Shown: positions 15,762-40,678 of the stretch, piece by piece
Numbering within the stretch: position 1 is the first letter of the stretch
Layout: each line of letters opens with the position of its first letter
From: Cyanophora paradoxa CCMP329
Lineage: Eukaryota; Plantae; Glaucophyta
NCBI GenBank assembly: GCA_004431415.1
Contig: QPMI01000102.1
Coordinates: 124,001-188,000, forward strand
DNA: 64,000 bases
Reading direction: 5' to 3'
The notes under the pieces: generated by a model
Told to the model about the DNA's origin: nothing
What the model saw: only the letters and a program-made list of their open reading frames with translations
Databases searched by the model: none
Made by a program: the position numbers and the translations under genes

Positions 15762-15793
15762 GCACAGCACCGTGCACACAGCATCAGCAGCAA

Positions 15794-20362: not shown

Positions 20363-20466
20363 ATTTATCGATACCATTTTCTTGTCTTTCCTCGCTGCTT
20401 CACACCAAACAAATTTTCTATCATTTATTGGATGCCGCTTCTCTTCATTACATTTCGTTCGCATCG

Positions 20467-20676: not shown

Positions 20677-20849
20677 GGTAGTAAAGTAGATTTACTGAGG
20701 TTAGCGAGCCGGCTGTTCGATCGCGAACCCCGATTTCGCAGTCTGAACTTCAAGTCCCGAATTTGATTCAAGTAGTCAACTTGTACTAGCGTACCCATAC
20801 GCGTTTCGCACGCAAGCGCGGCGCTCGAGCCGCCTCAATTTCGCGTTTC
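20674..20849 (+). repeat. Split direct repeat A2 (176 bp)
   Basis: Copy of A1. Confidence 0.95.
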
Positions 20850-20867
20850 CCGCCCGCCCTGTCCCAT

Positions 20868-21077
20868 GAGGCGCCCAGAGGCCAGCACCCTCGTAGCTGT
20901 CGGTCTAGTCGCAGACCTTAGCCTCGTGTGCAGCCCCCTGATCGTATACAGGCATCCAATTGTAGTCAACTAGAGTGTACGGCCGGCAGTATATTCATAT
21001 CAGATATCTCCAGCATACGATCCTGATTTAGATCTCAGAGCCCTCCCCGTGCGAGGAATGAGCCGAGTGAGTTAATG
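20868..21077 (+). repeat. Split direct repeat B2 (210 bp)
   Basis: Copy of B1; forms the right terminus of the element. Confidence 0.95.
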
Positions 21078-21210
21078 ATCATTAGAAAATCTTGGAAAGC
21101 GATTTTCTATCCGCGGTCACACCCCCTGCAGCTTCGAATTCGTTGCGATTGCAATTGCTTGCTTGTCTTTCACGTCGTCCTGCAATTTGTTCATAAGTAT
21201 ACGGTGGGAT

Positions 21211-21511
21211 TCAAATAGGCTTAGTTAGTGTCCCAATGTGATCCCAGCCCCATGCCTAGGCAGCAGGCGCGCAGGCGTAGCACGAACGGGTCGCAGCTGG
21301 GCTTCTTACAGGACTGAGGGGGTATCGAACAACGTAGGGGGGGGTACCGAATCTGTCTACGAACCGGCAACGCCGGAGGAGTCCTAGGCACTGCGGAGGT
21401 ACCGGCAAGTCTATGAGCTATTGAGAAGTGCTACAGCCTCAGCCCGCGCACTAGCACTATACTACAGAGTGGCTCGAAGGCCTGAATGCAAGCTAAACTA
21501 CAGTGGCAACA
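21211..21511 (-). repeat. 3' LTR (301 bp)
   Basis: Plus strand TCAAATAGGC...GTGGCAACA; identical by eye to 40315-40615. Confidence 0.96.
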
Positions 21512-21525
21512 GCCCTCTTGTCCCT
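21512..21525 (-). other. Polypurine tract
   Basis: Minus strand AGGGACAAGAGGGC directly abuts the TGTTG start of the 3' LTR. Confidence 0.8.
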
Positions 21526-21918
21526 AGGTCGCGTCCTCGCGGCCACACCAGGCGGCCGTCCCGACAGACTTACGGGCCCCGAGGCCCCGCTGCAGCCTTG
21601 ACAGAGCAAAACCAAGCAGCGGTGTACAGCCGCTACCCAGCCGCTCGCTGCGCAAAGGAAAAGTTTTATTTTAGCGCGAGCAATGGCCCTCGGCCCGCGA
21701 CATCGGTCCGGCATGATCCGGTACTCGCCTCGTCTCAGAATGGTAGCAGGGAAACCCAGGGGCCACACATTCCAGGGGAGCGCGCGTGCAGGGTGCACCG
21801 CCTCAGAGACGGGGAGCAAATCACCATCCAATTTGTCATCGCTCAGAAAGGATCCCAACCGTTAACGTCGACTGATCAGCGTGAGGCAGCCGTGGCCGCG
21901 TCACGTGTGGCAATCGAC

Positions 21919-23234
21919 TCACGCCGAGGTGGCGTCAGCATCTCCATCCTCAGAGTCAACATCACAGTCATCTACAACGACGGCCTCGCCGACAGGTTCC
22001 GGGGGTACCACGACCTCGTCCTCTTCGACCTCGTCGTCAAGGGGTACAGCTCCATCAATGGCGTCGGGATCGCTCGCGGCCGGAGGGGGAGCGGCTCGAG
22101 GCGGTCGGCCCTGACGTCGAGGCTCTGCCACGTCGGCCGGCCGACCGTAAAAGGGGATCATGAGGTCAACGTGAACAAGGATCGACTGGGATCGATGCAT
22201 GTTCGACGATGGCTCCCCGCGTACAGTGTACAGAAGGCCTCGGGAATGGATCTCCTGCACCACGTAGGGACCCGTCCAGCCATTCCTCGGCCCCTTGATT
22301 CGCGCGCTAGTCTTGGCAGTGATAATCCACACCAACACCTTGTCGCCAGGCTGGAAGACATAGGTAGGCTCGCGGCCAGTCCCGTAACGGAGCAACTTCT
22401 CGTTGTAAAGACGCCGGTGCTCGGCCACCGCAGTGATCCGATCCTTAGCGGCCCTCGCCACCGACAGCGCGTACTCGTACAGAGAGATCGACTCTTCGTT
22501 TGGTTCCCGCAGTACCAGATCGAGTCGAAGCTCATCGGGTAGGAGCAGTTCGCGCCCGTAGTGTAAGACTGCCGGCGAGAACCCAGTCGCCGCATGGATT
22601 GTTGTCCTCAAGGCAAAGAGAACTTTGTAATGATGGAAGGGCCAGTGAGCGCGAGGCTCGTGGTTCTCGTCGCACATCGCGTACACCAATCGCTTGTAGA
22701 TGCCGCCCAGACGCTCAGCGCCACCGTTGGTAGATTGGTGGTTGATCCAGTGTAGATCATGCGCGTACCCTTGGCTCGCCAGAAGGTTCCCCAAAGAGAC
22801 TTCGGTCCGAGGACCGTCCCGTTGTCAGAGAGGTAACGCTTGGGAGCACCGTTAGCCGCGAAGATGATCTGTGCCGCCATCTCCAGGGCCTGGCCGTCAG
22901 CCGCGGTGTACATGATAATCTCCGGGAACTTGGTGAAGGCGTCGACGTCGACTATCACGCCGGTGAAGAGGTGGACCCCGCGCCTGTGAGGTTCCATGGG
23001 GAACAGGTCGACCTGCCTCAAGTCCCAGGATGCGCGGATTCCAGCACCATGTGTTGGACTCTCGGGCGGCGTTGCGCCTTCGCGAACTGGCAGTGTCGGC
23101 ACGTTTTCACGAAGCGGTGAACAGCGTTCGTCATCCCCGGCCACCAGAAACGAGACGCGATACGCCGCGCCACAATGGGAGCGCCGCGGTGTGCCCACCC
23201 GTCGTGATACACCTCGAGGAAGGTGCGTCGCCAC
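21919..23234 (-). CDS. Gypsy integrase (H2C2 finger, DDE core, GPY/F), split by two -1 frameshifts
   Basis: YHDGWAHRG...CRHCQ; QVDL...DAFTKFPE...LSDNG; TNGGAER; LRTTIHAATGFSPAVLHYGRE; WTGPY...VHVDLM. No chromodomain seen. Confidence 0.9.
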
Positions 23235-26200
23235 GACGGGGGAACGAGGATTTGAGCTCGCATGGTAGGCAGGAATGGTAGCCGAAGGACAGTGCCCTCC
23301 TCATCGATCGTGTAGCCCTCGGCTTCACGAGCGAACCGTCGTCTCGCAGACTCGCAGTGAATGCATTGCTGCACAATCTCTGTTTCTACCGTCGCCGCTC
23401 GCCGGTGCCGAAGGCACATGGCGTTGTTCTCGCCCTTGCAGATGAAGGCTCGCAGCAGTTGACAGAGCGGGTCCTCCGCCTGTGCTGCAACGACGGCGGC
23501 GCCGTCGACAGCGAGTTTGGCAACAGACGGTGGTACGGGGACGTCGACCAGTGGTCGGGGTCCCTGCAGCCACGTATCTTCCACCACCACGTCGTCAGGT
23601 AGATGGATGACTGCGGGCTTGTTGCGGTCTCCTCCGGCAGGGCCAATAGGAGACTTGTCCAGCGGCGCGACAGCGTCGGTGCTCATCGGAGTAGGCTGAG
23701 GAATTCCAGAGTCGCGTTGCTGCTGTAAGTACGCCTCGTACTCAGCTTCGTCGGCGACGTCGAGAACGGCGGGGGGCGCAATGGAGTGGCGAGAGGATCG
23801 AGATCTCCTCCCTGGGAGGCGAGGGGGCAGGTCTGCGGCCCGCTGAGGGGTGTCTGCTGACTGCTTCCACGCTTCCCAGTCGGCGTTCCTCGCTTCGCGT
23901 CGCGTCGACTTGGTCGGCGGTTCCGGTCGGTTGCACGAGCGGCGGTTGGCATCGTGACGACTCTTGGCCTGGTCTGACAGCTGCTCGCGGCGGTTATCGA
24001 GGGCCTGCTTGTACTGCGCCTCTGACTCGCGGCGTTGCTGCTTGGTTGTCGTCTTCGCCTTGTCTCGCTCACCACGTGCAAGCCGCTCGGTGAGCGGGTC
24101 GCGCGGAGGTGGAGCGGGGATTCCGTTGCCGACGGACGAGGTAGAAGGGCCAGCTTGCGCCTGGAGGCGTTTCCGATCTCGTTCGGATTCCAAAGCTCGC
24201 AAGTACGAGTCGTTTAGAGGGGAGGAGGGGGAGTTTCCGCGGGCGTCCACGTGGTCGCTTCGGGAAAGGGGCACGGGGGCTGGGCAGCCCTCTTGTCCCT
24301 GAGACTGAGCTCCGTCCGCGTGGGGTGGTAGCGAAGGCTCAGTGCGGGTGCGTCGGGGCGGAGGGGGCTGTGCACTCTCGTCCTCGTCACCGGTGTCACT
24401 GTCGCCGTCGGGCCGAATTCGCCGTCGCGAACTGGGGGGTGACGTCGGCGGCTGGGGTGCTGTAGAGGAGGGACCGAGCCGTTGGCCAACGGGTCGATGC
24501 TCGTCTACAGGGGGCGCTTGGCGACGCCGCTTCGCTCCCGGCGCCAACGCCCATGCTGGCCCGTCGAGCGTGTCCGTGGGGGCTACCGCGAAGAGCTGGG
24601 TTGGGTCGTCGAGATCGCCTCGGCGGGGTACACCGAATCCTCGAGCTCCGTCGGGGATGTCAGTCGTGAGGTCTGAGCCGTCACCCGCTCCTGGGAGGAA
24701 GAGGTCGTGTGACGGTTCCAGACGCGACTCGAAGTCTGCAACAACGTTGGTGCGCCCCGCGCGGTACTCGATGGTGTAGTTGTAGCCCTGAAGTCCCAGC
24801 GCCGCTCGACAGAGCGCCTTGTTGTTCGTCACGTCCTGTGACTTCAACCATTGGAGTGCCGAGTGATCAGTCCGGACTGTAAATGGGTGCCCGCACTCGA
24901 AGTAATGGCTCCACACTTTCACCGCCCAGAGTACCGCGATGCATTCCCCTTCCGTCGGACTTTGAAACTTGCGCTCCGTCGCAGTCAGGGTCCTGCTGAT
25001 GAAAGCGATGGGACGCTCTCGTCCGCAGTCGTCAGCCTGCATGAGGACCGCCCCCATGGCGCGCTTGCTCCAGTCCGTGTGGATGACGAATGGTTTGGCA
25101 AAGTCGGGTAAGAGTAGTGCGACATCCTCCATGATGGCGGCCTTGAGGTCGTCCAGCGCCCGTCGAGCGTCATCGTCCCAGGTGACCGTCAGCGAGTCAG
25201 CTCGTGTTGCTCGCGTGACTAGGTCGCGTAGGGGCAGTTCCCGCTTCGCGTAGTTGCGAATGAACCGTCTGTAGAATCCAGTCATGCCGATGAAGCTGCG
25301 AATGGACTCGACAGTTCCGAGATCTTTTTCCTGGGTCTTCTCGATGAGGGCCATCTTGGTCTTGTCCATCTTCACGCCGTTGCGGCTGACACGGTGTCCG
25401 AGTAGGTCGATCTCTTTCACCATGAAACGGCATTTGGACGGTTTGAGCTTGAGGTTTCCTCGCTCGATCGCGGCGAAGAAAGCCTCAAGGTCGACAAGGT
25501 GTTGTGAGGCCGTCGGGGAGTGGACCGTGAGGTCATCAACGTAAGCGACAACGCTTGTCGACAGCAGATTGCCCAAGATCGATGTCACTGCTCGACAGAA
25601 CGCCGCTGGTCCGTTCGTAATACCAAACGGGGTAACTCGCCATTGGTACATGCCCCAGGGCACGATAAACGTCGTCAGAGGCCTGGATTCTTCGTCGAGT
25701 TCAAGCTGCCAGAACCCGGAGGTGGCGTCACACGTCGAGAAGTACGTCGCGCCTTGCAGGCGTTCGAGTTGATCGTCTATTCTCGGGAGAGGAAAGACGT
25801 CGCGCTCCGTGAGCGAATTCAACTTGCGGTAATCGACGCAAAATCTCATTGTCCCGTCCTTCTTGGGCGCCAGTACCACTGGGGAACCGTATCCAGCTTG
25901 GGAGGGTTCGATCAGACCATCTTGCAGCAGTCGTTCGATTTCGGCTTTGGCCGCCTTCTCAGCAGGGGGAGAGAGGCGCCGGGGCACGCTGTACAAAGGC
26001 AGATGCTTCGTAGGTACGCCGGGGAGGAGTCGGATGCTGTGACGGTACTTCAGTAGCTCTTTGGGGTTGATGCGCTGCGCGAAGCAGTGCGCCATCCGTG
26101 TGAAGAGGCTACGTAGTTGGTCACGCTCCTCCTCCGTCACATCGTTGTCGTCTTTCGACGGCTGCATGAGATCGTCGACGAGTTGTCGGACCTCCTCCTC

Positions 26201-27127
26201 CGTCTGTGGTGGGGGGGTGGCGTTGGCGCTCGAAGGAGGTTCCATTGCGTGGGGTTCGGCGGGTGAAGCGGAGGAGATGGTGATGCAACGCGGTTGCGCC
26301 GACGGCGTGGTCGGGGCAAACGTGATGCATACAGGGCTGAGGAGGGGCCTGCCTTGCCGATAGGTATCGGCAAAGTGGGGTTCGAAGATCTTGCACAACT
26401 CGTTGATCTCCGATGGCGTCAGAATCGCGCGTGATTCTCGGGTGTATCGCGTGACGAACGCAGTCACGAAGCGTGAGAGTTGGGTTTGAGCTTCGGAAGT
26501 GAGGACTGGGGGCGTCGGCGCCGCTCTGTGAGCGGGGTCTAGGCCTTGTTCCTCGGTCTGGGGTTGTGGTGGCCGTGCAAAAACAGAGGGGTACTGTTCG
26601 TGCACTCGGGATACGTAACGTCGAGGCTGTGATCGCCCAGGTACAATCACGGGTTGCACATTGGAGAGGATTTGGACGGCGATGGAAGAGATGGGGAACT
26701 TGCGCTTCTCGTCACTCGACCAGGTCTTGTAAGTACCCGTCGGGTATCGATGGACGTCGTCGTGGGGTCGGAACTCGCTCTCGGGCCACTTGCCGAATTC
26801 CGCCTCCGCGATGACGGTCCCCGCTTTCAAGCGGACGGGTCGGCGTTGTGGATTGCAGACCTGAGCGAGGAATGCTCCTCCTCGAGGACGTCGATGTATT
26901 TGGTGAGGGACAAGATGACGCGGTTCATCTCCTTCACCGGGGTCGTCGGCTCCGTCGTCGTCTCCAACAATGTGCGGCGGCGGCGTGAGGAGCATCTCCG
27001 GCGCATCGTCAGTCGCGTCTTGAGGGCCCGTCGAGACGTAACAGCGAACGAGAGCTTCGCCTGGCCCGACGGTGACATCTTGGGCGATGCGGACCAGAAC
27101 GCCCCCGTCGGTCTGGTCCGCAAGCAA
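23018..27127 (-). CDS. pol: Gypsy pol segment: degenerate dUTPase-like region, RT, RNase H, long spacer, integrase N-terminus
   Basis: SPVVLAPKKDGTMRFCVDYRKLN, DATSGFWQ, PFGITNGPAAF, YVDD (25532-25543), SFIGMTGFYRRFI, HTDWS, ECIAV, TDHSAL, NVVADFESR. Confidence 0.96.
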   Translation of the reverse strand: MLADQTDGGVLVRIAQDVTVGPGEALVRCYVSTGPQDATDDAPEMLLTPPPHIVGDDDGADDPGEGDEPRHLVPHQIHRRPRGGAFLAQVCNPQRRPVRLKAGTVIAEAEFGKWPESEFRPHDDVHRYPTGTYKTWSSDEKRKFPISSIAVQILSNVQPVIVPGRSQPRRYVSRVHEQYPSVFARPPQPQTEEQGLDPAHRAAPTPPVLTSEAQTQLSRFVTAFVTRYTRESRAILTPSEINELCKIFEPHFADTYRQGRPLLSPVCITFAPTTPSAQPRCITISSASPAEPHAMEPPSSANATPPPQTEEEVRQLVDDLMQPSKDDNDVTEEERDQLRSLFTRMAHCFAQRINPKELLKYRHSIRLLPGVPTKHLPLYSVPRRLSPPAEKAAKAEIERLLQDGLIEPSQAGYGSPVVLAPKKDGTMRFCVDYRKLNSLTERDVFPLPRIDDQLERLQGATYFSTCDATSGFWQLELDEESRPLTTFIVPWGMYQWRVTPFGITNGPAAFCRAVTSILGNLLSTSVVAYVDDLTVHSPTASQHLVDLEAFFAAIERGNLKLKPSKCRFMVKEIDLLGHRVSRNGVKMDKTKMALIEKTQEKDLGTVESIRSFIGMTGFYRRFIRNYAKRELPLRDLVTRATRADSLTVTWDDDARRALDDLKAAIMEDVALLLPDFAKPFVIHTDWSKRAMGAVLMQADDCGRERPIAFISRTLTATERKFQSPTEGECIAVLWAVKVWSHYFECGHPFTVRTDHSALQWLKSQDVTNNKALCRAALGLQGYNYTIEYRAGRTNVVADFESRLEPSHDLFLPGAGDGSDLTTDIPDGARGFGVPRRGDLDDPTQLFAVAPTDTLDGPAWALAPGAKRRRQAPPVDEHRPVGQRLGPSSTAPQPPTSPPSSRRRIRPDGDSDTGDEDESAQPPPPRRTRTEPSLPPHADGAQSQGQEGCPAPVPLSRSDHVDARGNSPSSPLNDSYLRALESERDRKRLQAQAGPSTSSVGNGIPAPPPRDPLTERLARGERDKAKTTTKQQRRESEAQYKQALDNRREQLSDQAKSRHDANRRSCNRPEPPTKSTRREARNADWEAWKQSADTPQRAADLPPRLPGRRSRSSRHSIAPPAVLDVADEAEYEAYLQQQRDSGIPQPTPMSTDAVAPLDKSPIGPAGGDRNKPAVIHLPDDVVVEDTWLQGPRPLVDVPVPPSVAKLAVDGAAVVAAQAEDPLCQLLRAFICKGENNAMCLRHRRAATVETEIVQQCIHCESARRRFAREAEGYTIDEEGTVLRLPFLPTMRAQILVPPSWRRTFLEVYHDGWAHRGAPIVARRIASRFWWPGMTNAVHRFVKTCRHCQFAKAQRRPRVQHMVLESAHPGT

Positions 27128-30100
27128 AAAGGGACATGGTATCGTTCGCCATTGTCGGCGTCAGGTGCCGTGATCGTCATTCCCCAGTTAGTCGGGTCGA
27201 GCGAGATGTGAGCGTTCATGGCAATGAGCGTCGCCAATCCAAGGAGCATTTGAGTAGACCCCATGAGGCCCTTGTCCACCACTAGGACCTCTCTCACCGA
27301 CCGTACGGGACCAATCATGACCGCCATGTAGGCGATGCGAGCGTAAGCCGTCATGTCGTCGCCAAATCCGGTCAGTTGTACTGGCGGCGCGCGGCTGTAA
27401 CGGAGGCCCTCGATGCGCGCAGCGAGGTCTCCGTCAATCACGTCAGCTGCGGCGCCCGTATCCACCAACGCCAGAGTTTTGACGGACGGTCCGACTTTCC
27501 GTCCTGGTGCATAGGACCCGAGTCGCACCGACACGCAGATGCGACCATCTGCAATCCGTTGCTTCATTGTCCGGTCGGGTTTTGTCAGCTGAGCGATTCG
27601 ACGTCCAATTGCCGTATCCTCGGCTGTAGGTATGTCGTTAGGAGACACGATGTCACCCAGCCAACCGAGCATTCTTGCCGTGCGGACACGAAGTGCTGTC
27701 TGGTAGCTCCGTTCCACTGGCGTCGTCAAAGGTCGTGACGATGAGATGGCGTCAGGTGGGAGGCGGGCAACCCGGATGCGGGCAGTCTTCTCCACCTTGG
27801 AGACCGATTCATGTGCTCTGTTGAAAACATGTACCGCCGCGAAGGTTCGAGGTCGGTTTGGAATCAGGCGGGTGCTGTTGGACGGCACCGGGCCGCTGCT
27901 AGGACGAGTGCTGTGGTCCTGCCGGCTGAATCCGAGTCCTCGTCTCGGGGATGTTGTGAGGTATTGGGCGTGTACGCTGGTCTTCCGGCCAAACCAGATG
28001 TAAGCGATGCTCTCATCCGAGTCAGGGTTGGGATCGAAGTCGACGAGCGTGTCGTATTCCGCGTAATGATGGCCGTGGCGACTGAGGCCCTCGCGCAAGT
28101 AGCTGACCAGCGTCTTCCACTGGTGAGGTAGGCGGGTGTCGCCCTGCAGGATCGAGTTGAAGTAAAATCGAGCGCGGTCCCGATGGATGGAGACGAGCGA
28201 GGCGTGTTTGACCGCGTCCCACGCGGTGAACCCCAAAGTGTTCATGATGAACGCCATGCGAGTGAACAGGGCGCGTGTGCGCACGACGTCCAAGGAGGCT
28301 CCCGCCGAGTTGGAGAGGTCAGGCGGCCGTGCTCGCAGATCCTCAGCCAATGACACGAGGGCGTCAGCATTGAGCTGATGCGGTGTTCGGAATGCGCTCC
28401 AGTCATACAAATCGTATTCAGTCCTGAAGTTCGTTCCGTCTTCGTCCCAGAGGTCTGGCCAGAGTACGGGGATGGACTCGTGAGACTGACCGTGTGCCGC
28501 GAAGCGTTCCCAGCTGTACTCCGTGTACGAGGTGTCCACAGGCGTTTGGGAGAGGTCACGGTAGTGTGCGCGGAAGTAGAAGGTAGGCGGGAGGGCTCCT
28601 TTACTTCCGCGTGGAGCTAGTGCCGAAGTTCGAGAAGTCGTGCTTGTGGTGTCGCTGTCGCTGCCCGCTACCGGTGGTGTTCGGGCGACGCGCCGGAAGC
28701 GAACGCGGTGAACTCCTGTTTGGGGCAGACGGGGCTTGAACTCGGGTGCGACGTCGAAGCGACAAAGGCGAAGTGCCCGAGCCGTGTCACCCCTGTCAAT
28801 CACGACGGGCGTCTTGCCGCCGACCCGAGCGCCGTCAATTGTTCGCGGTGTGATCCACAGGGCCCATTTGTGCTCCTTCTCGCCGTCGTTCGGGAGGTCT
28901 GTCTCCTTCATGCGCTTCGGCCTCGGCTTCGTACCGGCTAGACTTGGATTCGCGGCGGCCGCGTTCTGCCGTCGTACCAGCCTGGGCTGCTCCATCGTCC
29001 CCGTCGCCTGGTCGTACAGGTACGTCCGCGGGTATCGGGGGTCGACTTGTAGAGCGCCGCGCAGCGGGTTGATGGACAACCCGACGCCCTCAAATGGTCC
29101 GGGAGGAGCTCCGTCCTCGTCGTCACCGATGTAGAGGTGGGGCCCGAAACGGCTAGGATTTGCTCCGTCGGCTTCTGTGAGACCTCCGCTGTACCGCAAG
29201 GGGGGTGCCAGTTCAGCTGTCATGGTGATGCGGTCGTCCCGTGACGTGCCAGAAGCGTTGTAAGCCAGCGTTATCCAGCGCGTACGATGCTCCACGAGGT
29301 CGTCGGAGAACAGTATTGCGCCGTAGTCAAGGAGAAACAATTCGGGAATCGAATCTTCCTCGGACGCGTGGATCTCATTGTACTGTAGGAGTACCTCCGG
29401 ACCCACGTGCTGTTCGTAATGACGCCAGGACCGTTCGAACTCGTTCCTGTTGAACGTGTATTGGCTCACGCCCATGCCGAGGTTGTCCATGCCCCTGTTG
29501 CCGACCATGGTTCCGTCGTGTCCAAACATCTCGATGACGTTGACAGGGAGGTCGAAGGCAGCGGGAAAGTGTGCATGCTGCGACTGGCGATCTTCGTAGC
29601 GTTGCCATGTCTCCTTGGCTGTTGTGGAGGCGCGCCCGGCATTGCCGAGGGCCCCGTGGCGGACAACTGCCGCGAGTTGCGTTGTAATCGCCGTGACTAG
29701 TAGTGCCATGAAGGCCGTTGCAAACATGGCGCCGGGTGGTGGTGTTGCCGTGCCAAAATCCCGGGCGTACCAGTCTTGCAGTTCCTGAGACACGGTCATG
29801 TTGCCGTCGTCGTCGACACGGAAGTGTAGTAGGCTCGCATTCGAAGTCACGTATTCGTCGAGAATCTCCAGCAGGCCGTCGTGGATTGGCATCTGTTTCG
29901 ACGGGAACGCCGTGTACAAACGGATTGAAGCTGCTACGTGATGTGCGAAGTGGTGGACCCAGTGATGTACTTCCGGCTTGAAGGGGATAACGTGGATGAA
30001 TGCACCCTCCGTCGGCCTAGTAGGCCTCTCGATGGTCTTCCAGACGCCGCCGGGTAGGATCGTCTCCTCAAGCAGAATTGGTATGCGATTGTAGTCGAAG

Positions 30101-30438
30101 TATGCAGGCTGGTCCGCGGGCCGTTGTGGCCTGTTCGAACGGGCGATTTGGAGCCAAGTGTCACGGTTGTTGGCATCGAACACGTGAACGACAGCCTGGG
30201 TGTCCCTGGTCCGCGTCTTTGTGTAAATTCGCGGGCCGCCGTTGGCGAAGACTTCCAGGGTGTCGCTCAGTATTGTCGGGGAGTTGAACTCGTGGAACGT
30301 GCCAGCATGGGGTCCGCCGTTGCCAAGCGGGGGAGCCATTTCATGTCCCTGAGGCCGCTCGAGTGGGCTTCGGAACGCTGTGAGGTAGTTACCGAGCTCA
30401 TTCAACGGGTTGTGCTCATTGGCGGGAGCGATTGTCAA
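26827..30438 (-). CDS. Pol segment: about 950 aa of unknown function followed by aspartic protease
   Basis: 1203-aa ORF with LALVDTGAAADVI (about 27455-27470) and MLLGLATL retropepsin motifs near the C-terminus. Confidence 0.85.
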   Translation of the reverse strand: MTIAPANEHNPLNELGNYLTAFRSPLERPQGHEMAPPLGNGGPHAGTFHEFNSPTILSDTLEVFANGGPRIYTKTRTRDTQAVVHVFDANNRDTWLQIARSNRPQRPADQPAYFDYNRIPILLEETILPGGVWKTIERPTRPTEGAFIHVIPFKPEVHHWVHHFAHHVAASIRLYTAFPSKQMPIHDGLLEILDEYVTSNASLLHFRVDDDGNMTVSQELQDWYARDFGTATPPPGAMFATAFMALLVTAITTQLAAVVRHGALGNAGRASTTAKETWQRYEDRQSQHAHFPAAFDLPVNVIEMFGHDGTMVGNRGMDNLGMGVSQYTFNRNEFERSWRHYEQHVGPEVLLQYNEIHASEEDSIPELFLLDYGAILFSDDLVEHRTRWITLAYNASGTSRDDRITMTAELAPPLRYSGGLTEADGANPSRFGPHLYIGDDEDGAPPGPFEGVGLSINPLRGALQVDPRYPRTYLYDQATGTMEQPRLVRRQNAAAANPSLAGTKPRPKRMKETDLPNDGEKEHKWALWITPRTIDGARVGGKTPVVIDRGDTARALRLCRFDVAPEFKPRLPQTGVHRVRFRRVARTPPVAGSDSDTTSTTSRTSALAPRGSKGALPPTFYFRAHYRDLSQTPVDTSYTEYSWERFAAHGQSHESIPVLWPDLWDEDGTNFRTEYDLYDWSAFRTPHQLNADALVSLAEDLRARPPDLSNSAGASLDVVRTRALFTRMAFIMNTLGFTAWDAVKHASLVSIHRDRARFYFNSILQGDTRLPHQWKTLVSYLREGLSRHGHHYAEYDTLVDFDPNPDSDESIAYIWFGRKTSVHAQYLTTSPRRGLGFSRQDHSTRPSSGPVPSNSTRLIPNRPRTFAAVHVFNRAHESVSKVEKTARIRVARLPPDAISSSRPLTTPVERSYQTALRVRTARMLGWLGDIVSPNDIPTAEDTAIGRRIAQLTKPDRTMKQRIADGRICVSVRLGSYAPGRKVGPSVKTLALVDTGAAADVIDGDLAARIEGLRYSRAPPVQLTGFGDDMTAYARIAYMAVMIGPVRSVREVLVVDKGLMGSTQMLLGLATLIAMNAHISLDPTNWGMTITAPDADNGERYHVPFCLRTRPTGAFWSASPKMSPSGQAKLSFAVTSRRALKTRLTMRRRCSSRRRRTLLETTTEPTTPVKEMNRVILSLTKYIDVLEEEHSSLRSAIHNADPSA

Positions 30439-31490
30439 GGTGGTAAACTTGATCTCGCAACGGTTCTTGCGGTATTGCCGTCATCTGTCACGGTCTGCAC
30501 CCCGTGCAGGTACGGGTTGGAACGATTGCGTGCCCGATGGCGTACCACGCCGTCGAGCGCCTGTAGTGCTCCGCGCCAACGAAGCTGGTTAAGCGCGTGG
30601 ATCGGTCTGAACTCTGGAAGCTTCCGCATGAACTTGTCCATGTTCGTGTCGCCGTGCATGAAGTACTGAATTTGGCTCTCTGCCAGTGGGTGTTCCCATT
30701 CAGGCTTCGTATTCACGTACTCCTCCAATGCCGTCAAGTCACGCGTGAACGAGGACCGAGGTTGCGAGGCACTGCACATTTCTGCCACGAGGACGGCAGA
30801 CCACGGAGTGTATCTCATGTTCTCGGCCATCGCGGAGCTGAGAGTACTGAGAAAGAATTCGACGCCTCGGAATGCGAGCGGCTATTTGTTGATCGTGTAT
30901 ACTTCGTTGCGCGTGTCTGAGCGTGTCACGTCGTAGAGTTGCACCGTACTATCCTCGGGGATAGTGGGGTCCTCCAGACGTTCGAGTGCCGGCAGATCCT
31001 TGTGGTAAGACAGCGTGAACAAGCGGAAGTCGTTGTGTTGTCCCCTCCCGTGCTGGAGGCCCGAGTGCCCCGCCTCAAATGCCCACTGAGTATCGACGCT
31101 GTCGTCGAGTCCCCGCACTTGAGTATGATTGCTTGCGGTGGATGCGTTCCTGGGGTCGCCCCACCATCCGACGCGTTCGAACTTGTCGGTAACGTAGCCG
31201 TTCTCGATGATGTCGGCACCGAAGAACTTGTAGTAATACCGGGTACCGAATATGGCCCGGGCGTTCCGGCTGAGGTCGACAGTTTCGTAAAACCAATCGT
31301 CACCAGCCTCGTCTTCCGATATTACTGTCTTGCGGCCCTTTTTCAGGCCCACGCGTTTAGCAGTTGAGCCTGAAGTTGTGCTACGTGGTTGCTGCACCGG
31401 TGCCGGGGGCGGTCGTTTCCGTCCTGAGAACATGAGGGGGTGACTCCGCAGTGTGGTCTCGTCGTCGGCCGTAAAGAACATGGAATGCAA
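30435..31490 (-). CDS. Unknown-function N-terminal segment of the pol polyprotein (one in-frame TAG at 30882)
   Basis: ORFs 30882-31490 and 30435-30830 are in the same frame, separated by one TAG, and join 26827-30438 by a -1 shift. Composition is protein-like. Confidence 0.6.
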
Positions 31491-31630
31491 GTACGGACCC
31501 GTCCAAGACCGGCCTCTACCTCACAAACATTTCCACGCTGCCTGACGGACTCACGGAGCTGAACCCGGCTAACCGGCACGTCCTCGACAGACTCGTCACG
31601 TACGTCGATGTCGAGGAGCAATCAGCGATT

Positions 31631-33250
31631 TTGCTCAAACATACCGCCCATCTCCGCGCTGTCGCTTATGCGATCATGAGAATTGCGGGCACAGCCGACA
31701 CTACGGATAGCTTGGAAGAGACGCTGCGTCACGCATCTGTCCTCGAGCTGCTGGGCCTTGATGCACAACAAGCAATAACCCTGACGACTTCACGGCAAGG
31801 AATATTGCCTTGGCTCTTCGACGTCATGATCTCGTACGGCCGAAGCATGCGGGCACAATTCCCTACTTACTTCGAACCGCACGGGGACTACTATGCGCCT
31901 TTCCCCACTCTCGCCGACGCGCTGACGGTCCGCATGACGGCACTGGAACGCTTAATCCTCGAGTCGCACCTGCCGCCGCCCTTCGACGACGAATTCGCGC
32001 CTTACCCCACGGCGACACCTCCAGCGCTCGATCGAGACATCGCCCTCGAGATGCGGGTGACAGCCCTGGCCAACGCAATTCACATTGCAGCGGCTGGAGC
32101 ACGCATCTACTTCCACTCGAAGCCTCGGGAGTTGGAACGGCATCACTCATGGCGCAGCCCTTGGCTTCGCTGTTCGGATCCGTTCTCGGCAAAGCCAAAT
32201 AGGCTGCTGTGGCCGACAAGCCCAGACTTCTACTTCACAATGGGAGTCGAAATGGTGGAGTACATCACGCGCGTGCTCAACCTGCCCTTCGGAGGCCACT
32301 TCGCGAATAGCCCCAACAGCTGGCTGGCTACCGTCGACCGGTACCTTGACCGGACACAGACGCCCCCGGAACAGGGGACCTTGGACGTTCCCCGGAAGCC
32401 CTTCGAGCTCCACGGTGTATTACTCGACGAGTACAAACTAGCGGTGATTGAATGTAACGAGCGACGCCTCGACTACTCCGAAGACCCGCTTTCTCCACTC
32501 TGGAGAGGTCTTCAGGCGTTCCGGACCGGTGCCGAGAACTCCGGCAACGTGTTCGTGACCCATCTCTCCGCGAGGACAGCCTTAGGGCGTGCCCGCGAGC
32601 TCGGCGACGTAGCAGCATTCCGACAGGCCCTGCGGCTCCATCTGGACCGTTACCCGGAGAGAGTACATGAGCGCGTCGGTGCTCGTAGCTACCCGAGCAG
32701 CTTCGAGCTCAGCCGTGTGGAACCGGGACCTGACCTGCAACTGTCACTGGTTGAAGGCTACCCTGAGGGCCCGTACACCATCCGTATTCAACATCAGGAG
32801 GCGGTACTCCTCTCCAACCCCACGTTGTGGCACGCCACTGTTCTCGACGCATTGTATTGGGCGTTGAAGCGTAAATACAACGGGGACAAATGGACGGATG
32901 CGGAGGATTGGCAGGCTCAGTGCCTGGCATACGGAATGACAAACCGCCTTCGACTGATCGACTCCCAGCCGAACACCCTAGTCCGGCTCTCCCTCGTCCG
33001 GGCGATCATGTACGGGGCCGACAAGATTCTCGGAATTTTCCAGTACTGGAACAAGTCGAAGGAGAACCTACTTGCGGATCTTACACCCTGCGTACCGAAC
33101 GATTACGTGAATCCAAGCACGGCAACCATCGACATTATGCAGGCGTACAACGTCCCATTTCCCCCGATCGCTGGGGCTGAGGACACCACTCCCGGGATCG
33201 TCCAGAGTTGGGGCTTGGGGGTCGGCCGAGGTCGCCCTGAACGGGGGTGA
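31631..33250 (+). CDS. Antisense ORF (539 aa) of unknown function inside the LTR element
   Basis: Long complex ORF rich in W/Y/L; frame open from about 31475; the minus strand here has only short ORFs. Confidence 0.75.
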   Translation: MLKHTAHLRAVAYAIMRIAGTADTTDSLEETLRHASVLELLGLDAQQAITLTTSRQGILPWLFDVMISYGRSMRAQFPTYFEPHGDYYAPFPTLADALTVRMTALERLILESHLPPPFDDEFAPYPTATPPALDRDIALEMRVTALANAIHIAAAGARIYFHSKPRELERHHSWRSPWLRCSDPFSAKPNRLLWPTSPDFYFTMGVEMVEYITRVLNLPFGGHFANSPNSWLATVDRYLDRTQTPPEQGTLDVPRKPFELHGVLLDEYKLAVIECNERRLDYSEDPLSPLWRGLQAFRTGAENSGNVFVTHLSARTALGRARELGDVAAFRQALRLHLDRYPERVHERVGARSYPSSFELSRVEPGPDLQLSLVEGYPEGPYTIRIQHQEAVLLSNPTLWHATVLDALYWALKRKYNGDKWTDAEDWQAQCLAYGMTNRLRLIDSQPNTLVRLSLVRAIMYGADKILGIFQYWNKSKENLLADLTPCVPNDYVNPSTATIDIMQAYNVPFPPIAGAEDTTPGIVQSWGLGVGRGRPERG

Positions 33251-36200
33251 AGGTGTCCGTTCCGGGGTCTCAGATGACGACGTCGGTGGTGTATCTTCCA
33301 TCTTGTTCGCGATGGTCTGTACCCGGACTTGTCGTGGCTTGTATTTCCGCGTAGCGCTCGAGGCGGTCCTGTTCGCTTCGCGTCCCCGTGCTCGAGCGTA
33401 ACCAGTAAGCGCCGCCGCCATGTAAGGACCTTTGCCCTCACCCAAGGCGTAATCGGCGTCGTACGCCGTGTTCACGCTCGCCGTCAGATCCACGGATCCA
33501 GGCGCCGTTCGGGGTTTGGTTCCAGCTGGTCGTTGAGGCGCTCGGCTCGGGCGTCGTTCCCGCTCGTACATAAGATCGATAAAGTTACGCTTGTCGTCGT
33601 CAGTCGGGTATGTCCATGAGGGGGCCAGGTTGTACTGGTCTCCAGCTGGGCTGCAATGAAGTCATATGACTCAGGGATGATCTTCATGGCTTCCTTATAC
33701 TTCCGCTGCTCGTCCGGGTCGTAAATTCGGCGCAAGATGGCTGTGACTCGGATTGGATTGAAATACTCGTAGGCGGATCCGTGCTCGCCGATGCCGAAGT
33801 AAGGAATGGTGCAGCCACGGCTGTCTACCACTCCGGCCTCGTGAGACTGGTACGAGATGACCGTCGTTGGCTTCAACAGCCGCGGGGGATTGCGAGCTTC
33901 CTCAGGCCAGTGCTGCTGTGGTTGCGTCGTGAGGCTGACCAATGGGCCGTGAGCCGGTGTCGGGGGTGCGCTGCGCGTGTCCCCGGTCCTGGTTGGAGTT
34001 CGAGTTGCCGTGCGTAGGGTCCCGTAGTTGAACCGCTGGTTGGGTCGCGTGCTGGACCATTCTGTGTTGGCGTGGACTCTGTACGCACGTACGTCGAACG
34101 GCTCCATGTTAAGGTTGATGAAGCGGTCGTAAACATTGGCATAGCCATGCTTGCAGGCGAGCTGGCTCTCGGGCCACCAAGCGAGCGCTTCCATGATGAT
34201 TGCATTGAACGTCTCCTCGGCTCGAGTTGTTACTCTCCGGTCCAAGGGGCCGTCCGGGCCCACAGGCGTCGGATGGGGTACAAGCCTGTCACCTCGGCGT
34301 CTGGGTAGTTGCAATAAGACACGAGTGGGTACTTGCCACACGTCCCACAGTTCATAGTCATCTCGACGCGAGTGCTGGTGAACTGTCCGTCGGGGTTGTA
34401 AAGGTGCCGTCGGTAAAATAACATGTTCAGCTGTTGGCAGTGGTGGTGACATGTGGCTGCGTGCCCTTGTGATGGCGCCGTTCGGGCGACTGGCGTTGCC
34501 GGGCATGGTCCGGGAAAGCCAACCGCCTCGCAGCGGATGTAGATTTGCTGGGCGCCAGGGCTCACAAAGACGCTGTTCACCGTCTGTTTGGTAAAGAAGC
34601 TATCGCCTCCAAACATGTTATAGTCACCATTGCTTCCGGCCCGGAATCGCTGCCGCAGGATGCTGACAGCGTCCGTGGTCAGGCATTTAGCTTGGCTTCG
34701 CATGTAGCTCATGGAAGGTTTCGCGTTGCGACTCCGGTTCCGAGTTGCGAGCATCCATTTGACAGAGGAGTTCGTCGGCTCTGGCACGAGCGAGTTCCGT
34801 GGGTACGTTTCCAGATAAGCGTCAAGAACTGCTTGAGCTATCGTGGGGTACGTCGTGGGGGGCATCATGGTGACGATCCATGTGAGTGCCGCCGTTGGGC
34901 TGCAGTTGTAGAGTTCCCAAAGATCAACGTTTTCTCGCCGTGTGCGATTATGTACTGATTCGGCCCATCCTCGTATCAGTGATACTTGTTCTGAAGTCCA
35001 TTGGGTACCGCGGTCCAATGGCATTTCAAGTGATGTCGGAGGAGGCTGGGCTACCCCGTCAGCTATTGCTGGTGTGGGTGTCGAGTGTGGTGGAGGCGGG
35101 ACATGTACTGCGCCGGCCGTGGTCGGGGCAGGTACTGAGTCTCGCGCAGTAGGGACGGTGATCGCGCCGGCCGTGGCCGGGGCGGGTGTAATATCTCGTG
35201 TCGTAGGAACTGGTACTGCGCCGGCCGTGGCCGGGGCAAGTGTTCGTTCCAAGTTGTAGTTGTCGGATGGTCGGTCCCGCCGTGTCCAATTCACGGCCTG
35301 CTGCCATGCACCAGTGTTGATTGCATTGGCCGTCCGCTTCGCCCACTCATTGAGCAGTATGAGGTCAGCGGAGGTTGTGCGCCTGAGGATTGTAGCCCGG
35401 ATAGCTGTCGTCAAATTAAGTCGATCTGTCAAGTCTGGGGGTTGCTGGACTGGATGTTCAGCTAACGTATCCCAGTGTTCGTGATCACGGTCACCACTGA
35501 GGGGTCGAGCGTCCGGTACGCAAGGTCGATCCATGTCAGTTCCCGCAACTGGGTTGCCGTTCCAGAATGCTTGCACTGCCGTGCGTTTAAGTAGTGTGAT
35601 GTACTGAGGTCGGCCCGTGGCTGCGTTGGCTGGGTGGGCCTGGCCCAAGCTGCGAAGTGAATCCACAAGCGTCGTGAGATGCAAGTGGAGTGCACGGTCC
35701 GCCGGTCCGTTCGAAGGCTGCCGACTCTGACCGTGAATCTCGCGCGGTTCCAGTGCTCCGGCTGCCGACTGCTGGATTGTTATCGGCTTGCACCGGTCAC
35801 AGCACTCGTGAATGAAAGTTGTCTCGCCGCCAACGTCACCGTGAGGCTCGTACTGAACCACGTCTGGGAATGTGGAAAGGTCGTTCTCCCCAGCCGTTTC
35901 CGCTAACGGGTGGTGTTGGCGTTGAGGTGCAGCTAATTTGTTGACGTTGTAGTCAAGAGCGTGGTGAAAGATGGGCCGTACATGTTCGTGAGGGATAGGG
36001 TACCGATGAAGCATCGTTACGTCATCGACGTCGGTACTGCCGTTCTGCAGTGCCTGCTCTCTTGCACCCGCTGCTGTCGCACACAGTCCCGCACCCTTGT
36101 GTCCGAAGAGTATGGTAATGTGCTTCAGTTGGGGGCAATAGAGGACAGCGTCGATGAACGCCTGTCGGAAGTCGCAGCCAGGGAAGCCATGTGTGAACCA

Positions 36201-39164
36201 TGCACTTCCGGGCACTTCGCGAAAGTAGACGGGGTTTGCGAGGCGTCGTCTGTGCATGTAGCCCAGTACTTCTCGTAGGTACGTCGTGAGCGGCCCTACG
36301 TACTCAGCGATACATTCGGCCGGCTCCACGATCTGGTTCACCGTAGGCGAGATGACCGGTGTTGCGTGCTCCACTACCGGCTTCTGCGCCGTCGAGGCAA
36401 CGGGTGGCTGGCCGTCATGAGCCTTTGCCGTCGAGACGTTTGTGGTCTTGCCCCCTTTGCTGGTAAGTGCCGCCTTCGTTGCCGCGATCTCGAGACCGAG
36501 GTTGGCGGCCCGCGCCGTAACGTCCTGCAGCGTCTTTACCAGAGGCCCTTGGAGGTGTTCAGCGCACGTGTCCGTGTTCCAGCAGGTCTTTGTCGCGTTC
36601 TTGTCGACTTCGATCCGCCGTACTGGGATTGCCGCGGCTTGTGTAATTGCAGAGATACGTTCCCGAATGAAGCCAAATTTGGTTGTATACTTGTTGCTCT
36701 TGGGGCGGGTTGGGGTGGCAGCTCGCGCTCCAAGGTTGGCCATTTTAGCCAGTGCTCTGTTGACCTTGTCGAGGACGGTCGATGTCACTGCCGACACTCG
36801 TACTTCTTCTCGCTGCAAGTCGTATAGAGCTTGTGTTACGTTAACAGGTCTGGGCTGGAAGTGTGGTTTAGTAGCCCGCGTTCTAGCTTCTTGCACCAGT
36901 TCTGCGATTTGCTGTTCCGTAGGCGTGGAGGTAGGTGCTGGCGCCGACGTCGTGGTCGGGGCTGGCACTTCTCCCATTGGAACTGGCTGTGCGACGTGTA
37001 CCGGCACAGTTTGCAAGACTGGTGTCTCCACTGGGTTCGTCGGCGCCGGCATCGTGGCCGGGGCCTGCGTTGCAGTGGTTGGCACTGTCGGCGTGTGTAA
37101 TGAAGCCGTAGTTCCAGGTGGGCCCACGGGCGCCGGCGTCGTGGCCGGGGTCTGTGGTACACCTGTTGTGAGGGGCGTAGTGGTGTCAGACGGGCACGTA
37201 GGCGCCGGCGTCGTGGCCGGGGTCTTTGGTGCGTCCGTCGTCGTTGTAGGATTGTCATTGGCAGTGATGCCGAGGGGGGGGCGCGATGAAGGTCCTCCAC
37301 CACCGCTGCGACCGCCGCCTCGTCCGCCACCTCGTCCACCGCGGCCACCACGGTCACCGCGACCCCAGGGGTAGGTGTCCTTATTACCGCCTCCTGCGCC
37401 GCCACCGCCGTCACGGTTGCCGTTCCGGGGGCAGTTTGCTTGGAGGTGTTCAGTTGAGTTACAAAGTCGGCACTTCTTGGGTTGAGTGCATTCCGATTGG
37501 CGATGTCCGTAACCTTGACAGTTAAAGCATTGGAGGTTCGACGTCGGGTTAGCCGCTGCATTTTGCGTGGGCTGCGTCGGCGCCGTCTGTCCGTTTGAGC
37601 CAGTGGGAATCTTGCAGGTTTCTGCCGCCATTCGTACAATTGGGTTGTTGTCGCCGCTCTGGATCATCTCCAGTAGCTTATACCGGTAGTCATGCCGTGG
37701 GCATTCCAGGTAATCGTCAGCGTAATGGTGGCGTTCGGCCGGCGGTAAATTGTCAGGGCACCGCCAGCAGTAGAAGTCGTGGTTGGTACCGCGGTGTTTA
37801 GGCTTCTCTGCTCGGTGGTAACCTTCCCGTTGTTTAATTGCAGTAATCTTCTCAACGCGCGGGTAATTGTAATTGGGTTTCCCCGTCTGCTTCTTGTCGT
37901 TGGCCGGTGCAGGTATAGCTGCCGTGTATGCCGAGTTCGGGTTCGGTTGTCCGGAGCTTGGATGAGTGTAAACCGCGGACGCCCCGAGGGGTGCCCGGCT
38001 TGAACTCTTCCTACGCTTCGAATGTCCCGAGCTGGAGTCAGAGCCGTCAGAGTCGTCTGAGCTCTGCGATTGCCGTCGTGCACGTTGCTCCCGTCGTTGT
38101 TCCCGGCGCTGTTCCCGCTCGACTCGAGAGATCTTCTTGGAAGACTTAGCCTCCCAGTCGATGCCGAGCGGACCTCGACGAAGAGGCCAGGTGGTATAGC
38201 GGCGAAGGCGTCGGTCATGAAAGAAGCAAGCTTCATTTCCCTGAAGTCTGCTGAAGCGTCGTCCTCGGGTTCGTGTTCGAGGGCGATCCGCTTCAATTCA
38301 GGTATCTTGTCGCGGGCGTTCAGGAAGTTACGGTACCGGTTGTGACCCTCCTGGGTGTTCATGTTGGTGTAAGATCCCCACTGTGCCCAGCGCGTCGGTT
38401 GATCTGGCTCTCCAGCGTCTTCACAATGTCGATGGGCTTCATCTTCTGTCCGTCTGGGAGGAGGGTCGAGGATGGGAGTAAGTCGTGTACGGCCTTCAGC
38501 GCGTCGGGTAAAGGACTGCCGTCGTAAGGTGACTTGAGGCGCGTGTCCAAGGCCTCACTCTCCTCGGGGCTAATCTTGCTGATGAGGAATCGCATGTATG
38601 AGGGGAGGCCCTTGATCGTGCCAGGTTGATCGAGCGCGGCTTCAGCGCTCTCAAGTTCGGCGTTGGCCTTCTTAAGGCGTTCCAGTAACCGCTGCCCGTT
38701 GAAGCTCTGCCTCTCCGTCTTGCTCATGGCCAAGATGCGCTTGCCGAGCTCCTGGCATCTCTCGTCGGCCGCCTCCTTGGCGTTGACCTTGACAGCGGTG
38801 CCTTGCACAAGGGTCGATACGATGGACCTGAGGCCTGCCGACAGGGCTTGCAGTAGAACAAGGAGGAGGGCGAGGCTCTTCTGAGAGCCGTCGTTCTCGG
38901 TCGAGTACTTCTTGGGGTCCGATGCAGCAATGGCGCGGCCGTCGTTGATATGAGTAATGACGCCCTCAGGTTTGAGGGGCTGGCCGGGGCTGGTGGCGAT
39001 GAGCCCTCCGCAATCTTCACGCGCGTCGGGGGCTCTGCGTCGACTCCGCCGCGTAGCTGCGAGGACTCCGCACGGTTGGTCGCCGCAATCTCAGCCGAGT
39101 CGCCGTACGCGTGCGTCGGCACCGGGTTCCGGATGCGGGAGCCGCCGTGCTCGTCGCGGTTCAT
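33068..39164 (-). CDS. gag: Gag-like polyprotein (about 2,000 codons after joining six frames) with CCHC knuckles and a long C-terminal extension
   Basis: CFNCQGYGHRQSEC and CRLCNSTEHLQANC (about 37430-37530), an RGG tract and Pro/Thr repeats. Starts MNRDEHGG at 39164. Consecutive ORFs join by -1 shifts. Confidence 0.75.
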
Positions 39165-39216
39165 GTTGACGTTGATGGTCTCTGAGTGATTTCGAAGACC
39201 GTCGGTGAACGGAGCG

Positions 39217-39685
39217 CAGCCGCTGCGTGAGCGGGTGTGATCTGAAGTAAGATGTACGGTGGTGATGGTCCTGAGAGCTGAGGTGCTCCGTAGACCGGCG
39301 ACGAAGTCGAGGATGATCTTCTGAGCGGGGTGCTCTGAAGATCGACGACGCACAGATCTCAGCCGCTACGTGAGCGGGTGTGATCTGTAAAAATAGATGA
39401 CGGGGTGGATGATCTTCTGAGCTGAGGTGCTCTGAAGATCGACGACGCACAGATCTCAGCCGCTACGTGAGCGGGTGTGATCTGTAAAAATAGATGACGG
39501 GGTGGATGATCTTCTGAGCTGAGGTGCTCTGAAGATCGACGACGCACAGATCTCAGCCGCTACGTGAGCGGGTGCGATCCGTACAAGTTGACGAGGGGGT
39601 TGACGGTGACCTTCTGAGCGGGGTGCTCTGAAGATCGACGTACAGATTTCAGCCGCTACGTGAGCGGGTGCGATCCGTACAGGTT
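39217..39685. repeat. About 4-5 tandem copies of a 96-97-bp unit in the 5' leader of the LTR element
   Basis: AGCCGCTACGTGAGCGGGTG recurs at 39361, 39458, 39555 and 39651, with a diverged copy near 39218. Confidence 0.92.
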
Positions 39686-40314
39686 GCTCGTTTACGTCCT
39701 GCGTGTCACGTACGCGGCGTATGCCGGTGTGTCCGTAACGTACCGCGTCGCGATCGCGGCCGCCGTGTGGCCGACTACGAGGGCGAGGGCAGTCGAGCAG
39801 TCACTGCGTGTCGTTGGCCGAGCTGCTGACAGTGTTGTCAACAGCTGCGGAGCTCTCAGCGCGCGTGCACGAGCACGACGATCGCGACGAGAGTACGACA
39901 CGACAGCGACAGCAACGTGCAGTGCAGATCGCGCACCGATACACGTTGCCCTTTAGGCGTAACGAGCCGCAAGTCACGGGTCGCTACACGTAAAGGTCGA
40001 GTGATTTCGCCTCACTCTCTCCTGCACTGGGGCAGCGAGCCGCAAGACACGGGTCACTGCCTGCAGCGAGTGTTCGTTCCCGCACGTGTCCTGCGTAGAG
40101 CAAGGCACGCCGCGCGACAAGTTTGGCGAAGGGACAAGGAAGTCAGCTCCGTCAGTTAGGTCGTGCTCCGGCCGGTCGGCGCGTCCAGCGGGCACGCGGT
40201 CGTGTAGTCTAGCACGTCCGTCGAGGGTGACGCACTCTCCTCCCGCGGGTTCACGCCGGGTGGCGGCGGGTCGTTGTCGAACCGCCGTCAGGCCAGCGAT
40301 CGTCCCGGCGAGGG

Positions 40315-40615
40315 TCAAATAGGCTTAGTTAGTGTCCCAATGTGATCCCAGCCCCATGCCTAGGCAGCAGGCGCGCAGGCGTAGCACGAACGGGTCGCAG
40401 CTGGGCTTCTTACAGGACTGAGGGGGTATCGAACAACGTAGGGGGGGGTACCGAATCTGTCTACGAACCGGCAACGCCGGAGGAGTCCTAGGCACTGCGG
40501 AGGTACCGGCAAGTCTATGAGCTATTGAGAAGTGCTACAGCCTCAGCCCGCGCACTAGCACTATACTACAGAGTGGCTCGAAGGCCTGAATGCAAGCTAA
40601 ACTACAGTGGCAACA
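40315..40615 (-). repeat. 5' LTR (301 bp)
   Basis: Minus strand TGTTGCCAC...CCTATTTGA; followed on the plus strand by GGATT. Confidence 0.96.
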
Positions 40616-40678
40616 GGATTTTATTAATTGCAAAGAGATAAATACGTAGCTATAGACAGAGCAATCAATATATAGAGT

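Follow-up and report, generated by a model that had tools for sequence, protein, structure and literature searches.

What does a retrotransposon of more than 19 kb encode besides the proteins it needs to copy itself, and how is the extra coding expressed? The question is raised by a Gypsy element on the minus strand (21211-40615) of a stretch of 64,000 nucleotides from the glaucophyte alga Cyanophora paradoxa CCMP329 (GenBank assembly GCA_004431415.1, contig QPMI01000102.1, positions 124,001 to 188,000; "the window" denotes this whole stretch). An earlier note, made from the sequence alone, had described identical 301-bp long terminal repeats (LTRs) around an interior of about 18.8 kb. The LTRs indeed match at 301 of 301 positions, with 0 mismatches, and enclose 18,803 nucleotides. 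The assignment to Gypsy also held, both through the order of the Pfam matches (zf-CCHC, aspartic protease, RVT_1, RNase H and Integrase_H2C2) and through a target-site duplication (TSD) and a polypurine tract. With a probability of about 80%, we explain the element as a damaged or partly mis-assembled copy of a multi-copy Ty3/Gypsy family, whose intact form would encode Gag, nucleocapsid (NC), a large cargo and protease (PR) in one frame, followed by a predicted −1 shift into a frame for reverse transcriptase (RT), RNase H (RH) and integrase (IN).

Coding layout of the element

The codon model gives a coding-like signal across the whole interior except for a 1,150-nucleotide leader and a 407-nucleotide trailer. 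The earlier description of the element as almost all coding thus stands as far as the signal goes, but not as to intactness: the codon model and the list of open reading frames (ORFs) together break the minus strand into nine successive −1 frame steps and one in-frame stop (30882-30884). Neither the gag of about 2,000 codons nor the pol of about 3,200 codons that had been described is an open frame. Gag and the first 40% of the so-called pol likely form one Gag-NC-cargo-PR frame of about 4,000 codons, which in the intact family would span at least about 4,010 codons between the ATG at 39164 and the slip site discussed below. The amount of unexplained coding had been judged correctly: the interval from NC to PR holds about 3,300 codons, and the one from RH to the IN zinc finger adds up to about 490.

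Our comparisons are with predicted gene models in EukProt, from the same family, from two sister families (A and B) and from more distant families. Gag (37428-39164) comprises an N-terminal region in the capsid position and two CCHC knuckles (37428-37532); the family-A model P0124 collinearly spans its three −1 breaks. Cargo part 1 (33170-37427) consists of a Pro/Thr-rich linker and blocks at ~36320-35950 and ~34800-34530, with weak similarity to family-A and -B models (E 2e-5) and two −1 breaks. It is followed by an inverted segment (31485-33169, plus strand) and by cargo part 2 (27520-31484), which contains a conserved helical domain (~27970-28620), the stop at 30882-30884 and a −1 break near 30470. 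The aspartic protease, with its DTG motif (27226-27474; Pfam), forms the C-terminal end of the long frame. The pol frame (21919-27127, about 1,736 codons) encodes a conserved domain of about 110 residues between PR and RT, then RT (25867-25388, with YVDD), RNase H (25180-24782), an insert, the H2C2 finger (23245-23075), the IN core and the GPY motif, with two −1 breaks in IN; the core and GPY region were assigned through similarity to rve-bearing relatives.

Some smaller features accompany this layout. Upstream of the knuckles, a Cys/His-rich block (37600-37960, minus strand) is kept in family A (35% over 129 residues) and is possibly an extra zinc-binding module in Gag. A Dynactin_p22 match in Gag stayed below the Pfam threshold (E 0.0085). 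The insert between RNase H and IN (23250-24720, minus strand) is of low complexity and several hundred residues long, and it recurs in the full-length relatives examined. Its end, directly ahead of the H2C2 finger, is a Cys/His cluster that can be seen by eye in families B, C and D.

The inverted segment is what the earlier note had taken for an antisense ORF of 539 amino acids. A plus-strand frame does exist (31475-33250; 591 codons between stops, or 524 counted from its first ATG), but it is an inverted piece of the sense polyprotein. Each of the same-family models P0152, P0153, P0155 and P0157, which lie on four different contigs, matches within one protein first the plus strand over 31847-33169 and then the minus strand from 31484 downward, the two parts being joined by a 29-residue linker that occurs nowhere in the window. 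Same-family identity over the segment is 98.7-99.8%, and three of these four models are 503-1,706 amino acids in size. The homologous block is likewise in sense and at the same collinear position in family A (P0121, E 1e-17; P0161) and in family B (P0160, P0166, P0167). Because the same-family models and both sister families hold a sense, in-frame version, the segment is an inversion: 31485-33169 is flipped in this copy alone, with about 87 nucleotides lost at one end, either in the cell or in assembly. A longer homology search with the inverted segment as query found nothing. Caution is warranted wherever an antisense ORF is seen in a single long-read copy, as it can be an inversion.

Apart from the step after PR, six of the eight breaks are read through in relatives: besides the three in Gag, many relatives pass the two in IN, and P0153 and P0156 (two of the three models covering it) pass the one near 30470. 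P0152 and P0153 have a sense codon where the window has its stop at 30882-30884. Homologues pin the positions of three of the eight breaks (30473, 23026 and ~22743) and leave one tied between 39002 and 38981, while three further same-family models depart from the window frame at private positions. Single-base losses at different places in each copy are compatible with consensus errors of long-read assembly in repeats. A published C. paradoxa assembly is described as built from PacBio reads of about 15 kb with majority-rule correction (PMC6704402); reads shorter than the element, corrected in this way, could also inflate the LTR identity. The window copy is damaged or mis-assembled rather than intact, and some of the losses may be real mutations.

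The frame step after the protease

The frame offset behind PR is common to three families. In the window, the slippery heptamer C CCU UUU (27133-27127, minus strand) is followed by an 11-bp stem (27122/27088) that starts 4 nucleotides downstream, or 6 nucleotides for its G/C core. Among nine slippery-type heptamers on the element strand, only that at 27133 has such a stem, compared with 2 of 749 background positions, and the 48-nucleotide fold at this site (z −3.77; 0 of 200 shuffles) is the strongest among the six junctions folded. Seven base pairs are possible between the loop and 27066-27072 (second stem 27111/27066), and the two stems may form a pseudoknot; the predicted signal as a whole covers 27066-27133.

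Protein comparisons bear on both frames at this point. Past the Val-Pro-Phe that ends PR, family-A and -B models continue in what is a dead zero frame in the window, with 23 of 66 and 25 of 95 identities, respectively (shuffle maxima 14 and 19 in 2,000 shuffles), and the same-family model P0153 terminates in the same zero-frame tail. For P0005 and P0003 of family B, the PR tail of the former and the RT-frame start of the latter could be read from a single DNA shifted by one base at 50 of 54 positions; other offsets allow 21 of 54 at most. The −1 frame right after 27133 is conserved across families as well (43% and 51%), which argues against an intron there, and the distant model P0146 has Ile-Pro-Phe at the place that corresponds to Val-Pro-Phe. 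An X XXY YYZ heptamer, a nearby stem and a conserved frame offset together make up what is expected of a −1 cassette at the sequence level. The post-PR step is likely a programmed −1 ribosomal frameshift, and the gag/pol boundary would lie after the protease.

An intact element would translate one Gag-NC-cargo-protease polyprotein of about 4,000 amino acids. Most ribosomes would stop about 100 codons past the slip site, and a minority would continue to give a Gag-cargo-PR-Pol protein of about 5,750 amino acids. Production and packaging of cargo and PR would match Gag 1:1, PR would then cut the parts apart, and RT and IN would remain minor frameshift products. A frameshift at this place predicts cargo and protease at capsid stoichiometry, which is directly testable. 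The window copy as written would make no PR or Pol and would move only in trans.

Cargo, family and rival explanations

The extra coding recurs on four other contigs of the same family and, in diverged form, in at least three other families. It is neither unique to this copy nor a nested insertion, two possibilities that would have refuted the earlier proposal: the cargo is collinear in the sister families, and the repeat scan found no second LTR pair inside. Cargo identity between families is 25-42%, with weaker similarity upstream (E 2e-5), and frames that stay open and alignable at such divergence suggest selection on the cargo protein. Two other giant Gypsy families of the same genome, represented by the EukProt models P0146 (4,924 amino acids) and P0158 (3,310 amino acids), fill the same slot with unrelated sequence (2,448 and about 800 amino acids, respectively).

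Searches for the identity of the cargo were broad. Pfam gave none for the window and its relatives (13 and 11 proteins), the LEM domain in P0146 being a sub-threshold match only (E 0.073). None of seven queries matched in PHROGs, none of eight in NCBIfam, and neither of two gave a usable match in the ESM Atlas. One PDB profile search returned 0 matches and another a single weak one, to VP24 (7chk, E 0.079), which was taken as chance. A three-sequence profile of 27940-30468 (843 residues), run against 1.84 billion proteins, found eight matches, of which seven were from C. paradoxa; the eighth, a repetitive ENA protein without a match on the window, was rejected as spurious. By this measure, the deeply searched part of the cargo has no credible relative outside Cyanophora. 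Viral contigs queried with RT, and metagenome contigs queried with the cargo profile, yielded no relatives.

AlphaFold and Foldseek, which the earlier note had suggested for the cargo, gave a partial answer. The model of P0152 has a predicted local distance difference test score (pLDDT) of 32. The region 27940-28650 was modelled as a helical bundle, with 91 of 237 residues at pLDDT 70 or above; Foldseek against PDB and BFVD found nothing like it at E ≤ 0.001. VIA-align returned generic matches only (best ATRIP, Z 7.3, root-mean-square deviation 2.7, 90 residues aligned), which does not indicate a new fold. No membrane helix is conserved in the cargo, and the families have no hydrophobic peak in common: the window peaks at 2.04 in Gag and 1.89 in the cargo, family A reaches at most 1.62, and family B reaches 1.97 at a different place. 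The virus-like transmission proposed earlier finds no footing here, with no env match and no conserved transmembrane helix. We lean slightly towards cargo products that serve inside the cell as particle-associated helpers, in counter-defence or in scaffolding and targeting, rather than as an envelope.

The closest RT relatives are EukProt gene models, with up to 76% identity. Of the 120 matches listed, 27 are EukProt models; 14 of these are confirmed as Cyanophora paradoxa, and the rest are so labelled from the style of their names. Five C. paradoxa models, located on four other contigs, cluster with the protein predicted from the window itself. In a FastTree phylogeny of RT-RH (115 rows; 8 of 122 proteins were left out for coverage below 85%), all 25 Cyanophora-labelled rows fall on one side of a branch with Shimodaira-Hasegawa support of 100 and form at least seven groups. 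Their identity to the window is 47-80%, versus 34-43% for the 90 others. The RT phylogeny called for in the earlier note thus recovered a Cyanophora clade, which stays unplaced among named lineages because the tree contains no GyDB, REXdb or Burro references.

Several observations weigh against the explanation given above. The other copies are known through predicted gene models alone, in which a false intron may hide a frameshift. For the part from Gag to 33170 no model of the same family turned up; that Gag and PR are continuous is supported by a 1,355-codon frame of the window that crosses NC and by sister-family models, and matches to other families (E ≤ 1e-3) cover only 4,613 of the 9,901 nucleotides of the cargo interval. 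Outside the six breaks that relatives read through are two in cargo part 1 (~34230-34600 and ~33480-33660), and the break near 30470 is also present in P0152. Neither Pfam nor PDB matched a capsid domain in Gag, though the knuckles were found. At the predicted shift site, the 101-nucleotide fold is unremarkable (z −1.24), and a second CCCTTTT, at 22155 in IN, folds more strongly over 50 nucleotides (−28.4 versus −25.3 kcal/mol), with a stem of just 7 bp.

The rival explanations differ in how many products they assume and how these are reached. The earlier layout, with an intact gag, a true antisense accessory gene under its own expression and a long pol, is very improbable: although the plus frame is open for 591 codons with coding-like composition, was called as a gene of 467 amino acids (P0154) and has counterparts in antisense extra ORFs reported, in the sources consulted, from plant Gypsy elements, all four other same-family models with the segment carry it in sense and fused, as do families A and B, and the plus and minus frames begin back to back within 46 nucleotides. 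Alternatively, further recoding or internal starts could yield the cargo as several separate proteins, and same-family models do begin at an internal Met (31847), with the two cargo part 1 breaks lying upstream of it. We regard this as unlikely, as both the frame and its resemblance to families A and B continue upstream of this residue, the cargo part 1 breaks show no heptamer backed by a strong stem, and P0146 runs from Gag to IN in a single model.

Pol might also be reached by splicing or from a separate pol RNA. Ogre-like elements carry an intron in the PR-RT interval, short introns seem by eye to be frequent in the window's host genes, and the relatives' models pass from the PR frame into the RT frame as an intron would make them do; yet the points of passage vary between copies within a family, a conserved domain is encoded in the −1 frame that is skipped, and a canonical heptamer with an 11-bp stem stands exactly at the switch, which makes splicing improbable. 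That the cargo includes an env-like or other entry protein, the element being an infectious endogenous virus of the alga, is quite improbable; env homology has been reported in the same slot of the planarian Burro elements (PMC6431247), but here no hydrophobic peak is common to the families, and searches of Pfam, PHROGs, PDB and viral folds gave no match. A damaged copy of a multi-copy family with a Gag-cargo-PR frame and a post-PR shift is the explanation we prefer. As a tentative and rather doubtful extension of it, the family could belong to a glaucophyte-specific group of giant Metaviridae with an exchangeable cargo bay between NC and PR, independent of Burro and filled with several new protein families packaged 1:1 with Gag by a frameshift like that of Rous sarcoma virus (RSV); its Gag-Pro-Pol of about 5,750 amino acids would be longer than the reviewed Burro polyproteins, and the cargo would lend it a new activity, for example suppression of small-RNA silencing in the host or envelope-free cell-to-cell spread.

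Termini, surroundings and comparison with known systems

The 5' LTR (40315-40615) and the 3' LTR (21211-21511), both on the minus strand and of the same sequence, begin with TG and end with GA if the TSD is 4 bp (21207-21210, partner 40616-40619); with an LTR of 300 bp, the TSD is 5 bp and the ends are TG...TG. The usual TG...CA termini were not found in the one copy examined (3' end of the LTR at 21211-21215). A polypurine tract (21512-21525) adjoins the 3' LTR. The leader (39165-40314, 1,150 nucleotides) includes a tandem array of 3.8 copies of 97 bp (39311-39679). In this copy, no TGG-starting tRNA primer site follows the LTR (40290-40319), and the longest complement within the LTR is 6 nucleotides. 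A tRNA gene search of the window found none, and an Rfam search gave two chance-level matches only. TG...CA termini and a tRNA primer site are usual, but not universal, in Ty3/Gypsy.

Only 133 nucleotides from the Gypsy LTR ends a DIRS/Ngaro-like retroelement (15575-21077). It has split direct repeats (15575-15761/20663-20849, 98%; 20467-20676/20868-21077, 100%), a gag-like ORF (15659-17128) and an RT-RH frame (RVT_1, E 4e-10) with an array of ten 114-bp repeats upstream; no tyrosine recombinase ORF was evident by eye among its ORFs of at least 80 amino acids. A host gene at ~4500-10100 (minus strand) encodes a long coiled coil, is interrupted by short GC-rich introns and seems to resemble the nucleoporin Tpr/NUA.

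Among known systems, the element shares with Ty3/Gypsy the order PR-RT-RH-IN, the YVDD, H2C2 and GPY motifs, the LTRs, the polypurine tract and a TSD of 4-5 bp. Ty3 Pol is the best solved-structure match (E 2.5e-70; next 7.8e-37; retroviral RTs 2e-30 or weaker), and RNase H is matched by RT_RNaseH Pfam models, as is expected of a Gypsy-type RT/RH. The element differs from this group in its much greater length, PR in the Gag frame, ends other than TG...CA, the lack of a TGG primer site and the long RH-IN insert. The chromodomain that marks chromoviruses is missing: Pfam found no Chromo match after IN in the C-terminal frame or in full-length relatives. It also lacks an errantivirus-like env ORF; a trailer of 407 nucleotides follows IN, and no hydrophobic helix is conserved. 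A frame change between pro and pol reportedly occurs in Dictyostelium Skipper, although the consulted part of one paper did not bear this out (PMC5911963). RSV uses a −1 shift between Gag-PR and Pol. In alpharetroviruses (RSV and the avian sarcoma-leukosis viruses), PR is described as encoded as part of Gag (PMC12789967). The likeness extends to expression strategy only: the window element has no env, a Gypsy-type RT/RH and a huge cargo. The consulted part of a frameshifting review mentions only gag-pol shifts for retrotransposons (PMC5009743).

Other comparisons are more distant. Troyka elements, as described, have CG...CG termini and a 3-bp TSD (PMC12440569), which the termini and TSD of the window element do not fit. 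Rotifer elements are reported to carry a dUTPase between PR and RT (PMC5408684). A three-sequence profile of the ~110-residue pre-RT domain matched 0 PDB chains at E ≤ 10 and so gave no sign of a dUTPase-like identity. In Ogre, gag-pro is set apart from RT. Ogre/Tat elements are described as large Gypsy elements with extra coding of unassigned function, LTRs of 1.9-6.5 kb and separate extra ORFs (PMC6431247); Ogre owes its size mostly to long LTRs, whereas the window element has short LTRs and its cargo inside Gag-PR.

The earlier note had proposed a possibly undescribed lineage. Our literature search found no description of Cyanophora Gypsy elements; Repbase, GyDB, subscription papers and the supplements of PMC6704402 were outside it and may bear on novelty. 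The main text of the C. paradoxa genome paper puts LTRs at 1.77% of the genome and does not contain the word gypsy (PMC6704402). The general design, however, is known from Burro/GYPSM1 of planarians, reported with a CCHC Gag, extra domains and PR-RT-RH-IN in polyproteins of 4,873 and 5,140 amino acids (PMC6431247). Likened by layout alone (the RT tree contains no Burro sequence), both have thousands of extra residues between the knuckles and PR (~3,300 codons in the window element) and an extra domain between PR and RT. The reported Burro cargo is recognisable (Smc, MATH, BIR, ankyrin, BCL2 and env; PMC6431247), whereas the window element and eight relatives have no such Pfam match; and Burro, at more than 30 kb with LTRs, is described with one ORF, while in the window element the LTRs measure 301 bp and a −1 shift is predicted behind PR.

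New here, then, is a Cyanophora clade with a giant Gag-cargo-PR frame, unmatched cargo and a likely post-protease −1 frameshift, on a giant-polyprotein plan that has precedent. If true, this would be a second case, probably independent of Burro, of Gypsy growth by loading cargo into the NC-PR slot, this time in an alga that diverged early and can be cultured, and with cargo that resembles nothing searched. With at least seven RT groups in one genome and cargo of about 800, 2,450 and 3,300 amino acids, the clade would allow the limits of RNA and polyprotein size in LTR retrotransposons, and the roles of such accessory proteins, to be addressed.

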